Assembly (NCBI GenBank): GCA_964510585.1
Contig: CAZECW010000187.1
Coordinates: forward strand, 60,001-92,000
Length of the DNA stretch: 32,000 nt
Origin: an uncultured archaeon
GTDB taxonomy: Archaea > Asgardarchaeota > Jordiarchaeia > Jordiarchaeales > Jordiarchaeaceae
Direction: 5' to 3'
Below, piece after piece: positions 5,082 to 27,973 of the stretch; positions within the stretch are counted from its first letter, which is position 1, and each line of letters opens with the position of its first letter. The position numbers and the translations under genes were made by a program. The notes beneath the pieces were generated by a model. It saw nothing but the letters and a program-made list of their open reading frames with translations, did not search any database and was not told where the DNA came from.

Positions 5082-6146
5082 TTGGCGGATCTAATTCCTT
5101 GTCTAGTAATCTCTAAAAAGAGGGCACAGGAGGCCAAAATTGTTCTCTCGGAGCTAGGTCTCCTTGACAATAGGATGCGTGTTTCAAGTGATTCCGGAAA
5201 TATTTTTTGGCCTCTGGTTAGGGAGATTTCAGAGAGTGAGCGTTCCATTTTGGAAAGCAGGCTGGGTGTTTTTGAGTTGGCTTACACTGAGCCCAAGCTT
5301 AGGATGAAGCGGCCAAAGAGTATTCTGGAGGAGTTATACGAAAAACTTTCTCCCAGCCAGTTGGCTTCACTGCCCCACTCTTATGATGTGGTGGGCGACA
5401 TTGCAGTGCTTGAGATTCCGCAGGAGCTTTCTGATAAAGGCTCCCTTATAGGTAATGCAGTTTTAAATGTGCACAAAAATGTGAGGGTGGTTTTGGCTAA
5501 GGCTGGGAGGGTAAATGGTGTAACCCGCGTTCGAAAGTTTATTCATCTTGCGGGAGAGAATAGGACAACTACGCTGCATAGGGAGAATGGCTGCGTTTTC
5601 CGGGTGGATTTATCCTCGGCTTATTTTAGTCCACGCCTAGTGACTGAGCATGCCCGCGTAGCAAGACAGGTTTCTCCCGGCGAAGTGGTGGTGGATCTCT
5701 TTGCGGGTGTAGGTCCCTTCTCCATTCAAATCGCTAAAAGGGTGGATGCGCACGTGTATGCCATTGATATTAACGAGTCGGCAGTGGAATTGTTGAAGCA
5801 GAATATTCATTTGAATAAGGTTGAGGGTAGAGTTTTCCCAATCTTGGGCGACGCTCGAAAAGTGGTGGAAGAGAGGCTTTCTTCCAAAGCGGATCGGGTT
5901 ATTATGAATCTCCCAGGCGAGGCTGAGAATTACATTGATGTTGCATGCCGGGCAATTAAGTCGGGGGGAGGAGTAATTCATTACTACCAGTTCTCTACAT
6001 CCGAGTCTGCAGACGAGGTGATTGAATCCCTAACCAGAGGTGTTGAGGCAAGTTCCCGAAATGTGGTTAAAATTCTCGGCTTTAGGAAGGTGCGGCCAAG
6101 CGCACCACGAGAGTGGCAAGTAGTTGTGGATGCACAAATCAAATAA
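5082..6146 (+). CDS. trm5: tRNA (guanine37-N1)-methyltransferase, Trm5 family
   Basis: SYDVVGDIAV, HRENGC.F.VD, YFSPRL..EH.R, VDLFAGVGPF and RVIMNLP motifs; N-terminal D1-like domain present. Confidence 0.88.
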   Translation: MADLIPCLVISKKRAQEAKIVLSELGLLDNRMRVSSDSGNIFWPLVREISESERSILESRLGVFELAYTEPKLRMKRPKSILEELYEKLSPSQLASLPHSYDVVGDIAVLEIPQELSDKGSLIGNAVLNVHKNVRVVLAKAGRVNGVTRVRKFIHLAGENRTTTLHRENGCVFRVDLSSAYFSPRLVTEHARVARQVSPGEVVVDLFAGVGPFSIQIAKRVDAHVYAIDINESAVELLKQNIHLNKVEGRVFPILGDARKVVEERLSSKADRVIMNLPGEAENYIDVACRAIKSGGGVIHYYQFSTSESADEVIESLTRGVEASSRNVVKILGFRKVRPSAPREWQVVVDAQIK

Positions 6147-6298: not shown

Positions 6299-6733
6299 TT
6301 AGGGGGCTTCCGCGATTAGGGTTATTTCGACCTTGGTTTGGGGATCCTTCAATTTTTGGACTAGTTCTCTGTTTAGGTCTAGTGCTGCCTTGTTGGCTTT
6401 TATCATTATTGTTCTATCACTGTGGTAGGTGCTTTTTCTCGCCACTATGTCGTGGGGATGGGTGAAGGTTAGGTGGGGGCTCCCCTGGCCCTTAATGGTT
6501 TCTGTTTGGTTGTTGACTTTTAATATCATGGTGATGGTTGAATTTTCTTTTTTCGCCAATTCTTTAAACGATTCGCTGAGCTGTTTGGCTCCCTTATCTG
6601 CGCATACGGCTACTATGCAGTCTCCCCTGATTGTTAAGTCTTCTCTGGTTGTTATTTCTAGGGTTGTTCTGTGTGTGGCGGAAATGTTTGGGTGGCCCCG
6701 TGCATGTATCGTTTCTTTTGCTTTTTTGGCCAA
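6299..6733 (-). CDS. DUF371 domain protein
   Basis: ARGHPNISATHRTTLEIT.E..LT.RGDCIVAV.ADK and IVARKSTY.SDRTIMIKANKAA signatures. Confidence 0.88.
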   Translation of the reverse strand: MAKKAKETIHARGHPNISATHRTTLEITTREDLTIRGDCIVAVCADKGAKQLSESFKELAKKENSTITMILKVNNQTETIKGQGSPHLTFTHPHDIVARKSTYHSDRTIMIKANKAALDLNRELVQKLKDPQTKVEITLIAEAP

Positions 6734-6820
6734 GTCTTTTTACACCGATAATTATTTTTGTATGACGCGCAATTAAATGTTAAGAGAGGATGCAAAAAAG
6801 AGTTGCGTGAGTGGAGATTT

Positions 6821-7557
6821 TTGGCAAAAAAGGACCTATTGTTTGAAAAGAAAAGACTTCTGGAAGAGTTGAAACGCTCGGGGTTTGTTACTCGGGAAAA
6901 CGTGATGCGTGCGTTCCTAGAGGTTCCCAGGGAAGAGTTTGTGCCCCAGAATCTCAGGGACAAGGCCTATGCTGATCATCCTCTTCCCATTCCTGGAGGT
7001 CAGACTATATCTGCGCCACACAAAGAGCACATATTATGCTTTTTGGGCGTGACATGGTTGTAATGATGTGTGACGTACTAGAATTGGAAGAGGGTATGAA
7101 GGTACTAGAGGTGGGCACGGGGTCCGGCTACCACGCAGCACTATGCGCCGAAATAGTGGCGCCCACCGGCTCTAACGCTAAAGGCCATGTTTACACTATT
7201 GAACGGATTCCAGAATTGGTAGAATTCGCCATAGATAATTTGAGGAGGGCGGGGTACCTTGACCGGGTAACCGTCATCACTGGGGATGGTTCGGAAGGAT
7301 ACAAGGAAATGGCTCCCTACGATGCTATACTCGTCACAGCCGCAGCTCCCAGAGTTCCCCAACCCCTAGTTGACCAACTAAAAATAGGGGGGAGAATGGC
7401 CATTCCCCTAGGAAGCCTCTTTATGTACCAGGAGCTGGTAGTAATTGAAAAAGTGGAGGAGGGCAAAACCAAAAAACAAAGATTCGGCTCAGTAGCCTTC
7501 GTCCCCCTACTGGGAAAATGGGGATTCAGCACGAATTCCAGCTCTTTATCTCTCTAA
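6821..7557 (+). CDS. pcm: Protein-L-isoaspartate O-methyltransferase, intron-containing (join 6821-7019, 7052-7557; 234 aa)
   Basis: Exon 1 encodes VPREEFVP...AYADHPLPIPGGQTISAPH; exon 2 encodes MVVMM...VLEVGTGSGYHAA, APYDAILVTAA and QLKIGGRMAIP. TTG start at 6821 follows GTGGAG. The two track ORFs (6758-7063, 7036-7557) join in frame after removing 32 nt. Confidence 0.92.
7020..7051 (+). other. BHB intron in pcm mRNA (32 nt, frame-shifting)
   Basis: Central helix CGCC(7014-7017)/GGCG(7046-7049); 3-nt bulges AC|A and UG|A; 9-bp intron helix CAAAGAGCA/UGCUUUUUG; exon helix UG/CA. Spliced junction GCG CCA C|AC ATG = A-P-H-M. Confidence 0.88.
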
Positions 7558-7572
7558 TTTTTGTGAATGTGG

Positions 7573-8601
7573 TTATGGTTTGAAGAACTGTTCAAGGCGG
7601 GATTGGGCCTTGACCTTTTCCTCTTCCCTTACGCGCTCCAGTGCCTTTTGCACCCTCTCTCTGGAGAAGTCATGTTCATCACAGAGTATGGAGTACACCT
7701 GATTTTTATCTACGGGTTCCCACTTTATCTTGTAGTTGTCAGTTAACTGGGGCTTAAGGAATAACTTTTTAATTTCTTCCACTGGCGGAAAAATCTCCAG
7801 TTTTTCTTCCTCCACTACTTTTTCTATGCTTCCCTTCTCCTTTATCAGTTTTAGCGCAGTTTTCACACCTATCCCCTTAACTCCCTCATTATAGTCTGTG
7901 CCAAGCAAGATTCCTATACCTATCAACTGCTCACACGTGATTCCAAGGCTCTCCAGATTCTCATCAAGCAATACAAGTTCCGGCTCCACCCTAACATAAA
8001 CGTCTCTCTTGGGCAATTTCCTTCTTCCCGATATTGTGAGATTTCGCACCAAGCGGGGGGAACCATAAAGTAGGGAATCATAGTCCTGGCTGGCAACCCC
8101 CCAAGCATCTCCCCGACGCGCCATGTAGGACGCTTGAGCCTCTCCCTCCGAAGGAGCCTGTACGTAGGGTACACCCATAGCCTCCAATAGCCTTTTGCTC
8201 TCCTCAACCATCTCGTCTGTCAACTTTGATGAGGCCTGAGCAAACTTCCTAGCCTCCTCCAAGTCCCCCTTCTCAAGAGCCTCCTCCCACCTCTTGGCCG
8301 CTTCCCTCCTAATTTTTACTCTCTCCTCCACAGTTTCCAATTTTAGTTCTGGAGGTTCACCATCAAACACGTAAACCGGCTTAATCCCCGCCTCCAGCAA
8401 GTTGATCGTCCTATAAAAAATACCGCTCAAGTGAGAGGTAATGTTACCCCTACTATCCATAAGGCTGGTGCCATCAGGCTGCCTAATTATCGCCAGAAAC
8501 TGGTAAAGAGCATTCATAGCATCTATAGCAATCACACGGCCCGAAAGCTCCTTCAAATCTATCTGCCGAAAAGACAACAAGTCCCTAAGATTCACTCCCA
8601 T
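7573..8601 (-). CDS. fen: Flap endonuclease 1
   Basis: MGVNL, IAIDAMNALYQFL, APSEGEAQA, SQDYDSLLYG and GTDYNEG motifs; C-terminal PIP box QSRLEQFF; ATG at 8601. Confidence 0.97.
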   Translation of the reverse strand: MGVNLRDLLSFRQIDLKELSGRVIAIDAMNALYQFLAIIRQPDGTSLMDSRGNITSHLSGIFYRTINLLEAGIKPVYVFDGEPPELKLETVEERVKIRREAAKRWEEALEKGDLEEARKFAQASSKLTDEMVEESKRLLEAMGVPYVQAPSEGEAQASYMARRGDAWGVASQDYDSLLYGSPRLVRNLTISGRRKLPKRDVYVRVEPELVLLDENLESLGITCEQLIGIGILLGTDYNEGVKGIGVKTALKLIKEKGSIEKVVEEEKLEIFPPVEEIKKLFLKPQLTDNYKIKWEPVDKNQVYSILCDEHDFSRERVQKALERVREEEKVKAQSRLEQFFKP

Positions 8602-8817
8602 AACCAAACACCCAAACCCAATTCACCGTTCAAGAATAAACTTTTTGAAAAATAGTATTATAACCTATCTACTTATCCTTTTTTATCAGAAAACATCACA
8701 CAAAAAACTTATCCCAGCTAGTTCAATCAGATCGTCCCAAAAATATGGGAGGAGGAAGCCAAAACAATTTTTATGGGCGGAATACCCGCAACAAATCTAT
8801 CCCCTAAACCATTTATC

Positions 8818-27346: not shown

Positions 27347-27973
27347 TTGTCCGTGATACCTATGTTGGATGCTTTTTATCAAAAATTAGGTGAGGACATC
27401 AAAACCGCTAACGATTTGGAGAAGAGGGGGGATTTTAGAGCTGCGGCGAAACTTTGGATTGAGATAGCTGAATACTGCTTAAAATTTGCTAGATCTGAAT
27501 ATGCTTCTGAGGAAATTAGAAAAAACCTTATTGAGAGGTCTGAAGGCTATATTGAGCATGCAAAAATGCTAAAAATTAGACCAGCACCCTTAAAGGGCTC
27601 CATAGAAAAAAGCTCCCAAGCAATAGACTATTTGGAAAAAGCTTTGGATGATAAGGTTAGAGCTGATAAACAGTGGATGGCCCTTGACCTAAACTCGTAC
27701 ATAATGACTATGTTTAGTGTAATTGAAAAACTCCTCTACCACGTTTATATATCCAAAACGGGTAATCTTCCAAGCCTCGAAGAAACATTTACTTCTCTTG
27801 TTAAATGGGCCTACAGGGAAGGAATCATCAGTGATCACCCCGACAATATTGAATTCGTTAGGCTCCTTTACGAAAAATTATCCAAAAAATCGCAAAAAAT
27901 AACTAGTGAACAGGCTATGGAAGCAAGAGAAATAATGGAGCGAGTGTATAAAGAGTTATGCGAAAACCTATAA
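27347..27973 (+). CDS. Hypothetical protein: MIT-like three-helix N-terminus plus HEPN/DUF4145-like helical C-terminus
   Basis: A.DLEKRGDFRAAAKLW...IERSEGYIEHAKML resembles an MIT domain. The C-terminal IEKLL.H...LVKWAYREGIIS...ITSEQA pattern resembles HEPN but lacks RxxxxH. True start may be ATG 27362. Confidence 0.5.
   Translation: MSVIPMLDAFYQKLGEDIKTANDLEKRGDFRAAAKLWIEIAEYCLKFARSEYASEEIRKNLIERSEGYIEHAKMLKIRPAPLKGSIEKSSQAIDYLEKALDDKVRADKQWMALDLNSYIMTMFSVIEKLLYHVYISKTGNLPSLEETFTSLVKWAYREGIISDHPDNIEFVRLLYEKLSKKSQKITSEQAMEAREIMERVYKELCENL

Follow-up and report, generated by a model that had tools for sequence, protein, structure and literature searches.

A probable bulge-helix-bulge intron of the tRNA type within the pcm coding sequence of an Asgard archaeon and its relatives

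The DNA analyzed here (the window) is a stretch of 32,000 nucleotides, positions 60,001 to 92,000 of contig CAZECW010000187.1 from assembly GCA_964510585.1, and the gene in question is pcm, which lies on the forward strand of the window at 6821–7557 and is interrupted by a short insert. The stretch belongs to a 3.78-Mb metagenome-assembled genome (MAG) that is 96% complete (G000, contig C187) and whose DNA occurs in hot-spring metagenomes. The pcm region is 97–99% identical to MAGs labelled Candidatus Freyarchaeota or Candidatus Jordarchaeia and 79% identical to Ca. Jordarchaeum madagascariense, which bears out the assignment to a probable Asgard archaeon made in a first-pass annotation of the window. 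The list of open reading frames (ORFs) contains pcm in two pieces, whereby the upstream frame ends with ...GGQTISAPHKEHILCFLGVTWL* and the downstream frame reads MVVMMCDVLELEEG..., i.e. (MLFGRD)MVVMMCD.... Sequence, ORF list and profile matches confirm that the break lies inside the conserved motif QTISAPHM, where the first-pass annotation had put it. The halves were scored separately against family profiles. The exon-1 product (P0001, translation of 6824–7019) matched positions 3–59 of PF01135 (PCMT) with an E value of 4.7e-14, and the exon-2 product (P0002, translation of 7054–7557) matched positions 61–208 of 210 with an E value of 1.4e-47. In the NCBIfam equivalog PRK13942, exon 1 covers positions 5–63 and exon 2 positions 65–214. 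The single PCMT profile position missing between the halves is the His of SAPHM, the codon of which is split between C7019 and A7052 C7053. By its profile matches pcm is predicted to be one gene for a complete protein-L-isoaspartate O-methyltransferase (PIMT; profile family PF01135/TIGR00080). Together the two matches span the family profile with its SAPH motif and its SAM-binding GxGxG region. Exon 1 (6821–7019) comprises a putative TTG start, 66 codons in all and the first base of the His codon, whereas exon 2 (7052–7557) supplies the last two bases of that codon, 167 codons and the stop. The putative TTG at 6821 is preceded by GGAG at 6813–6816, as read from the sequence. The full PIMT of 234 aa proposed earlier holds in that the profile is complete, with no residue gained or lost; the figure of 234 itself depends on the assumed TTG start.

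The insert between the two exons is 32 nt long (7020–7051), and its removal restores SAPHM and the PCMT profile with neither gap nor gain. The sequence of 7010–7059 is tctgcgccac acaaagagca catattatgc tttttgggcg tgacatggtt. Within this region, CGCC of exon 1 (7014–7017) pairs with GGCG of the intron (7046–7049) to form a central helix H of 4 bp, which is flanked by two three-base bulges, ACA at 7018–7020 with a predicted cut after C7019 and UGA at 7050–7052 with a predicted cut after G7051. On the intron side follows the hairpin h' (7021–7045), whose stem pairs 7021–7029 with 7037–7045 (8 Watson-Crick pairs and one G.U, 9 bp in total) around a loop at 7030–7036. On the exon side a weak outer helix h joins UG at 7012–7013 to CA at 7053–7054 through the pairs U7012-A7054 and G7013-C7053, and exon–exon pairing beyond it resumes only past an internal loop. 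All elements of the bulge-helix-bulge (BHB) geometry that had been proposed for this site, namely the helices UG/CA and CGCC/GGCG, the bulges UG / A and AC / A, nine intron pairs and a length of 32 nt, were found again on the sequence. The label textbook BHB is justified for the core (H, both bulges and h'), which is exact, but not for the outer helix h with its 2 bp, and judging from these pairings, the most fitting description is that of a relaxed BHB of the HBh'-like form. In cbf5 pre-mRNA the cut falls between the second and third bulge residue (PMC2738675). Cutting the pcm insert after the second base of each bulge likewise yields an in-frame, codon-exact product: excision of 7020–7051 gives GCG CCA CAC ATG GTT (APHMV), and the predicted spliced product reads ...QTISAPHMVVMM... 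across the junction. Because "AC" is repeated at both borders, three adjacent cut registers lead to the identical product. When the 32 nt were shuffled 300,000 times, 95 of the shuffled versions (3.2e-4) formed a BHB that restores the frame and has 4 bp or more in its inner stem, and none reached 9 bp there. The local fold has an energy of −18.8 kcal/mol (z −3.15) and is better than all 200 shuffles. Neither an Rfam family match nor an ARAGORN hit was obtained anywhere in the window. A self-splicing group I or group II intron was ruled out by the size of 32 nt, as the ribozyme core of such introns takes hundreds of nucleotides, and by the missing Rfam match; an origin from a mobile element was rejected, there being no second copy in the genome. 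We consider it very probable that the insert is a genuine mRNA intron spliced by the tRNA splicing endonuclease EndA and the ligase RtcB.

Taken alone, a frame-breaking insert in a conserved motif looks like a disruption, as would be expected from a decaying pseudogene or from an assembly or sequencing artefact. This explanation is hardly credible in view of the following data. The insert occurs unchanged in contigs of the independent DNA runs X2 and X5 and, with changes confined to the loop, in X15; five further species of the genus have it in their genomes too. Thus, it is not an artefact, a possibility that the first-pass annotation had asked to be checked. In total, the insert is present in 17 species genomes from five families. 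The ratio of nonsynonymous to synonymous substitution rates (dN/dS) is about 0.02–0.06 in both halves, with 0.018 and 0.019 for exons 1 and 2 between L067 and L069, and 0.057 and 0.065 between L067 and L072, whereby dS is near or past saturation between the genus members compared. These values point to strong purifying selection on both exons, which rules out a pseudogene. A homology search found no second PIMT-like match in G000, and among 5.8 billion protein clusters there was no full-length PIMT (at least 220 aa) that is more than 67% identical to the Jordarchaeales proteins. One contig with an uninterrupted junction was also encountered. Runs X15 and X19 are labelled METATRANSCRIPTOMIC, yet their contigs reach 85 kb and are probably DNA; they hold the intron-bearing form of a close strain. 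A 2.5-kb contig from these runs has the junction ...GCGCCACACATGTGC... (loose end at 7066) and was rejected as a spliced transcript. Within 7066–7155 its sequence departs from that of the Jordarchaeia-like contig found alongside it, and no species genome matches it exactly. From these differences and the lack of a full-length PIMT above the 67% identity level, we conclude that it is an unrelated intron-less pcm, and it carries no weight for splicing.

For a comparison with relatives, both pcm halves were searched by tblastn, and 94 related loci were examined. All members of the genus have an insert of 32 nt at the same point. In the sister family within the order its length is 25, 29, 31, 31, and 32 nt, in Ca. 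Baldrarchaeum yapensis 32 nt, in two f13 genomes 28 and 29 nt, and in one f15 genome 31 nt. The remaining Asgard, TACK, and euryarchaeal homologues among these loci have no insert at the site. No insert length (25, 28, 29, 31, 32 nt) is divisible by three. In each of the 15 distinct homologues with an insert, the 4-bp helix H and two 3-nt bulges are present and splicing would give SAPHM, and with two further homologues from a pattern census (see below) the same bulge-helix spacing is seen in 17/17 Asgard genes. The 5' bulge is AC / A, AC / G, or AC / U across the homologues, and the 3' bulge is NN / A in all 17. The test for compensatory changes that had been suggested for the helices was strongly positive. 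In alignment A1 the proposed structure leaves 94.8% of the cells paired, compared to 31–58% when the partners are slid by 1–3 columns, both sides have changed in 7 of the 13 pairs, and the covariation score was reached by none of 500 shuffles. Helix H is 100% paired in the 15 homologues. Its variable pair is G-C in most and A-U in Baldrarchaeum and one f13 genome, where the exon changes synonymously from GCG to GCA and the intron from C to U; the helix of Baldrarchaeum reads CACC/GGUG. In helix h, the bulge-proximal pair is G-C in 13/15 homologues and G.U in 2/15, and the second pair forms in 9/15. The stem h' is 5–11 bp long, with 6 of 7 aligned pairs changed on both sides among relatives, and the loop sequence differs even between strains. 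The Ala and Pro codons of the motif are GCG or GCA and CCA in 17/17 intron-bearing genes. All four Ala and all four Pro codons are in use in 61 distinct intron-less homologues, and the neighbouring Thr and Ser codons vary freely within the intron-bearing set.

These comparisons also bear on the question whether the insert could be overcome by the ribosome instead. In such a translational recoding the ribosome would bypass the insert or shift frame across it, as in the hop of phage T4 gene 60. It would suit this idea that a stable hairpin follows the break and that a stop in the zero frame follows soon after. However, a hop needs matching take-off and landing codons, and it is GAC, not CAC or CAU, that precedes the ATG at 7054. 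Furthermore, the inserts vary widely in length and sequence, and conservation extends to the BHB geometry but to no slippery or landing motif. Thus, recoding appears very improbable.

The only serious rival is a gene for two polypeptides. Here the insert would be kept, and an N-terminal fragment of ~80 aa, ending at the stop at 7061–7063, would be made together with a separate C-terminal protein starting from the ATG at 7054 (or 7036); together the pieces might form an active enzyme, or fail to do so. The present annotation is in line with this. In the Freyarchaeia/Jordarchaeia relatives it is exon 2 alone that gene callers annotate, in all of them as a stand-alone protein of 158–167 aa named "methyltransferase domain-containing protein" or PIMT, and not, as had been expected, a pseudogene. 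Such exon-2-only entries also comprise Ca. Njordarchaeum guaymaensis and many metagenome proteins that are 70–84% identical to family f13. With respect to the start codons, intron-less PIMTs also conserve the Met of SAPHM that the ATG at 7054 encodes, so that its conservation calls for no role as a start, and the ATG at 7036 is absent from close relatives. Moreover, two separate polypeptides would leave unexplained why the bulges are placed exactly in frame across five insert lengths, why the exon Ala codon covaries with the intron, and why the synonymous sites of Ala and Pro are frozen. Without splicing, Leu or Arg would take the place of the conserved His (SAPL / SAPR) in L075, a Jordarchaeales locus whose insert has 31 nt, and in L071, so that this residue would be lost there. 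Overall, we regard the two-polypeptide gene as improbable.

Splicing of the pcm message nevertheless has to be weighed against several observations that speak against it. When the host sequence is folded without constraints, the 3' bulge is lost to pairing in the minimum free energy (MFE) structure, relative to which the BHB form costs 4.3 kcal/mol. The corresponding cost in relatives is 0–3.2 kcal/mol (0–2.4 in most), and in four relatives the BHB is itself the MFE structure. The outer exon helix beside the 3' bulge has just 1–3 bp, 2 bp in the host pcm, which makes the motif a relaxed one. The relatives are not independent of each other, so that the covariation counts overstate the number of events. 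A conserved ATG opens exon 2 after the purine-rich bases GGCG/GGUG, and an independent translation of the C-terminal part would be possible from there. Finally, cleavage, ligation, and circularisation of the pcm transcript, and any regulatory role, are inferred from DNA sequence.

If the insert is spliced as proposed, CGCC of the exon, which belongs to the Ala and Pro codons, would pair with GGCG of the intron in the pre-mRNA, and the 3-nt bulges and the 9-bp intron hairpin would flank this helix. The splicing endonuclease would cut after C7019 and after G7051, i.e. after the second base of each bulge. This enzyme would be formed by the two EndA paralogues of the host, probably as an alpha-beta heterotetramer of the crenarchaeal type. 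RtcB would then ligate the exons, probably freeing a small circular intron, and only the ligated mRNA would encode the active-site motif QTISAPHM and the full-length enzyme. The genome holds the candidate genes for these steps. Two paralogues with a PF01974 (EndA) match are present, in the regions of G000:C157:27039-27287 and C126:19921-20181. One has its nearest counterparts in the catalytic subunits of heterotetramers from Aeropyrum and Pyrobaculum (3p1z_B, 3ajv_B, 2zyz_B), and the other is divergent. RtcB is encoded as well (578 bits). Asgard EndA has been described as an (alpha-beta)2 type with an L1 loop that confers broad specificity (PMC5829648), and an enzyme of this kind would suit the weak outer helix of the pcm motif.

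By eye from the translations, we take the ORF at 5082–6146 (+) to encode a Trm5/Taw2-like methyltransferase of 354 aa and the ORF at 7573–8607 (−), convergent with pcm, to encode a FEN-1 flap endonuclease of 344 aa. A further ORF of 144 aa lies at 6299–6733 (−), on the strand opposite to pcm. No BHB-type break was seen in these three neighbouring ORFs. Elsewhere in the genome two other protein genes are interrupted. The cbf5 gene (G000:C18, minus strand, about 27700–27717, L098/L099) carries a canonical BHB insert of 31 nt with an outer helix of 5 bp, the central helix CACU/AGUG, the bulges AG / A and AA / A, and an inner stem of 7 bp. Its predicted spliced product is KKAGHAGTLDPKVTGVLPV, and the cut falls between bases 1 and 2 of the catalytic Asp codon, which is the site of the crenarchaeal cbf5 intron (PMC2738675). 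The rtcB gene (G000:C58:3702-5036, L097) has an insert of 30 nt with an in-frame TGA at residue 21; the insert lies between CCCG and CGGG, with 3-nt bulges and a weak inner helix, and its removal restores ...LPD / AHQGYGFPIG. The message of the ligase would therefore itself need splicing. As predicted from these motifs, pcm is not the sole protein gene with a BHB insert in this genome. An ab initio census of BHB-split ORFs over the whole genome gave no more candidates with 3/3 bulges than decoys with 2/2, 4/4, 2/4, or 4/2 bulges, and its filters missed the known rtcB case, so that this census had no power. In the 96%-complete genome, the Rfam model detected 7 tRNA genes (six of them 93–107 nt long) and ARAGORN 5. 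According to the intron sections of PMC11291895, 92–95% of the tRNA genes of Freyarchaeia and Atabeyarchaeia bear introns. The few detected tRNA genes fit such a high share, most being evidently too interrupted for standard detection.

In order to find out how far the pcm insert is distributed, 400 Asgard species genomes were searched with a degenerate pattern for the interrupted site, which requires CRCC...GGYG, so that variants may escape it. The insert was found in 17 of the 400 genomes, spread over five families: f1 with 6/6 genomes (host included), f2 with 5/5, f13 with 2/3, f8 with 1/1, and f15 with 3/4. This set comprises all 11 Jordarchaeales, Baldrarchaeum, and members of two other families, for one of which, f13, the nearest named protein is from Ca. 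Njordarchaeum guaymaensis (75%). About 30 other Asgard families gave no pattern match, and the reversed-pattern control gave none. In a search for related loci with generic patterns, 79 of the 80 loci listed had no insert and the remaining one was a locus already in the set. A slightly wider pattern was applied to 301 sampled genomes from the class to which the Bathyarchaeia loci belong, and 38 of them showed an insert in the same codon and phase (reversed control 0). Twelve of these loci were read through (L202–L213) and have inserts of 20–22 nt. Many inserts of the Bathyarchaeia class are this short, with a GC-rich stem of 5 bp (e.g. CGGCU...AGCCG), while longer matched strings imply longer inserts in other genomes of the class. 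The pcm intron is thus not peculiar to one genome but common to five Asgard families, with an insert at the same site in the Bathyarchaeia class. The pcm tree unites the Jordarchaeales genes in a single clade with good support. Family f13 branches separately from it, and so does f15, either alone or together with Baldrarchaeum; the backbone is weak. The intron-bearing genes of Bathyarchaeia group with intron-less Bathyarchaeia genes and not with Asgard ones. A transfer of the intron-bearing pcm between Bathyarchaeia and Asgard archaea was considered, and no sign of it was seen, each group sitting with the genes of its own phylum. The intron may have an ancient origin followed by many losses, or it may have been gained repeatedly at one site; the weak tree backbone fits either.

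Among known systems the closest counterpart is the cbf5 intron of Crenarchaeota (Desulfurococcales, Sulfolobales; Yokobori 2009, PMC2738675), which is likewise a short BHB-type intron within a coding sequence. In both cases the codon of an active-site residue is split after its first base (Asp in cbf5, His in pcm), relaxed motifs are common, the EndA of the host is hetero-oligomeric (probably so in the case of pcm), and the distribution is patchy, suggesting gain and loss. Unlike cbf5, pcm is a gene for a protein-repair methyltransferase, and its host belongs to the Asgard class Jordarchaeia, with a counterpart in the Bathyarchaeia class. Moreover, splicing of cbf5 is backed by cDNA and in vitro cleavage, whereas that of pcm is predicted from the genomic evidence described here. 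Studies of cbf5 pre-mRNA introns were reportedly published by Watanabe in 2002 and by Yoshinari in 2006. Judging from its motif, the pcm intron is a cbf5-type intron in a new host gene and phylum.

The non-canonical tRNA introns of Freyarchaeia and Atabeyarchaeia, as treated in the intron sections of PMC11291895 and in a preprint (10.64898/2026.10.13.758758), share with the pcm insert the lineages, the BHB logic, the size range, and the presumed enzymes, and the failure of tRNA detection is likewise met in the host genome. They differ in that the pcm substrate is an mRNA, the product of which must keep the reading frame. The preprint deals with tRNA introns only and the word "mRNA" does not occur in it; the passages on introns in PMC11291895 concern tRNA genes. 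An mRNA substrate is also known from the BHB intron in the 5' untranslated region (UTR) of HVO_1309 in Haloferax volcanii, where splicing was confirmed in vivo and in vitro (PMC7714728); unlike the pcm insert it lies in an untranslated leader, in a host with a homodimeric EndA. That publication of 2020 names cbf5 as the only known archaeal mRNA intron besides its own 5'UTR case. The first-pass annotation had cited cbf5 as the classic example and knew of no report for pcm, and our full-text literature search found no report of a pcm intron or of BHB introns in coding sequences of Asgard archaea. The splicing of HAC1/XBP1 mRNA in eukaryotes resembles the proposed splicing of pcm in that a short frame-shifting intron is removed at paired stem-loops independently of the spliceosome. 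It differs in that IRE1 and not a tRNA endonuclease cleaves and in that it is stress-regulated, and no homology is claimed. In metazoa, splicing of this type involves ligation by RtcB. By the title of a study of Tanaka et al. from 2011, RtcB can reportedly catalyse HAC1 mRNA splicing in vivo.

For more than 20 years, cbf5 has been the sole archaeal coding sequence for which a need for tRNA-type splicing has been published. With a second host gene, the processing of mRNA by the tRNA endonuclease and ligase would prove to be recurrent and stable and not a curiosity of one gene. The pcm intron is kept in Asgard lineages of class rank and has a counterpart at the same codon in genomes of the Bathyarchaeia class. 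With respect to annotation, the databases contain the exon-2 fragment as the pcm "protein". The finding also bears on estimates of gene content and pseudogenes in Asgard MAGs and on how frame-disrupting introns are tolerated in the lineage nearest to eukaryotes. It is possible, although we would not call it probable, that introns in protein genes are more widespread in intron-rich Asgard lineages than has been recognised, the pcm intron being one example and those of cbf5 and rtcB others. In this case the pcm intron would predate the split of Jordarchaeia, Baldrarchaeia, f13, and f15 and would perhaps be shared with Bathyarchaeia, or it would have been gained repeatedly at a hot spot. Since rtcB itself appears to need splicing, the splicing capacity would then gate the output of RNA-processing and protein-repair enzymes. 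If this is true, a regime of mRNA splicing run by tRNA enzymes would exist in the closest prokaryotic relatives of eukaryotes.
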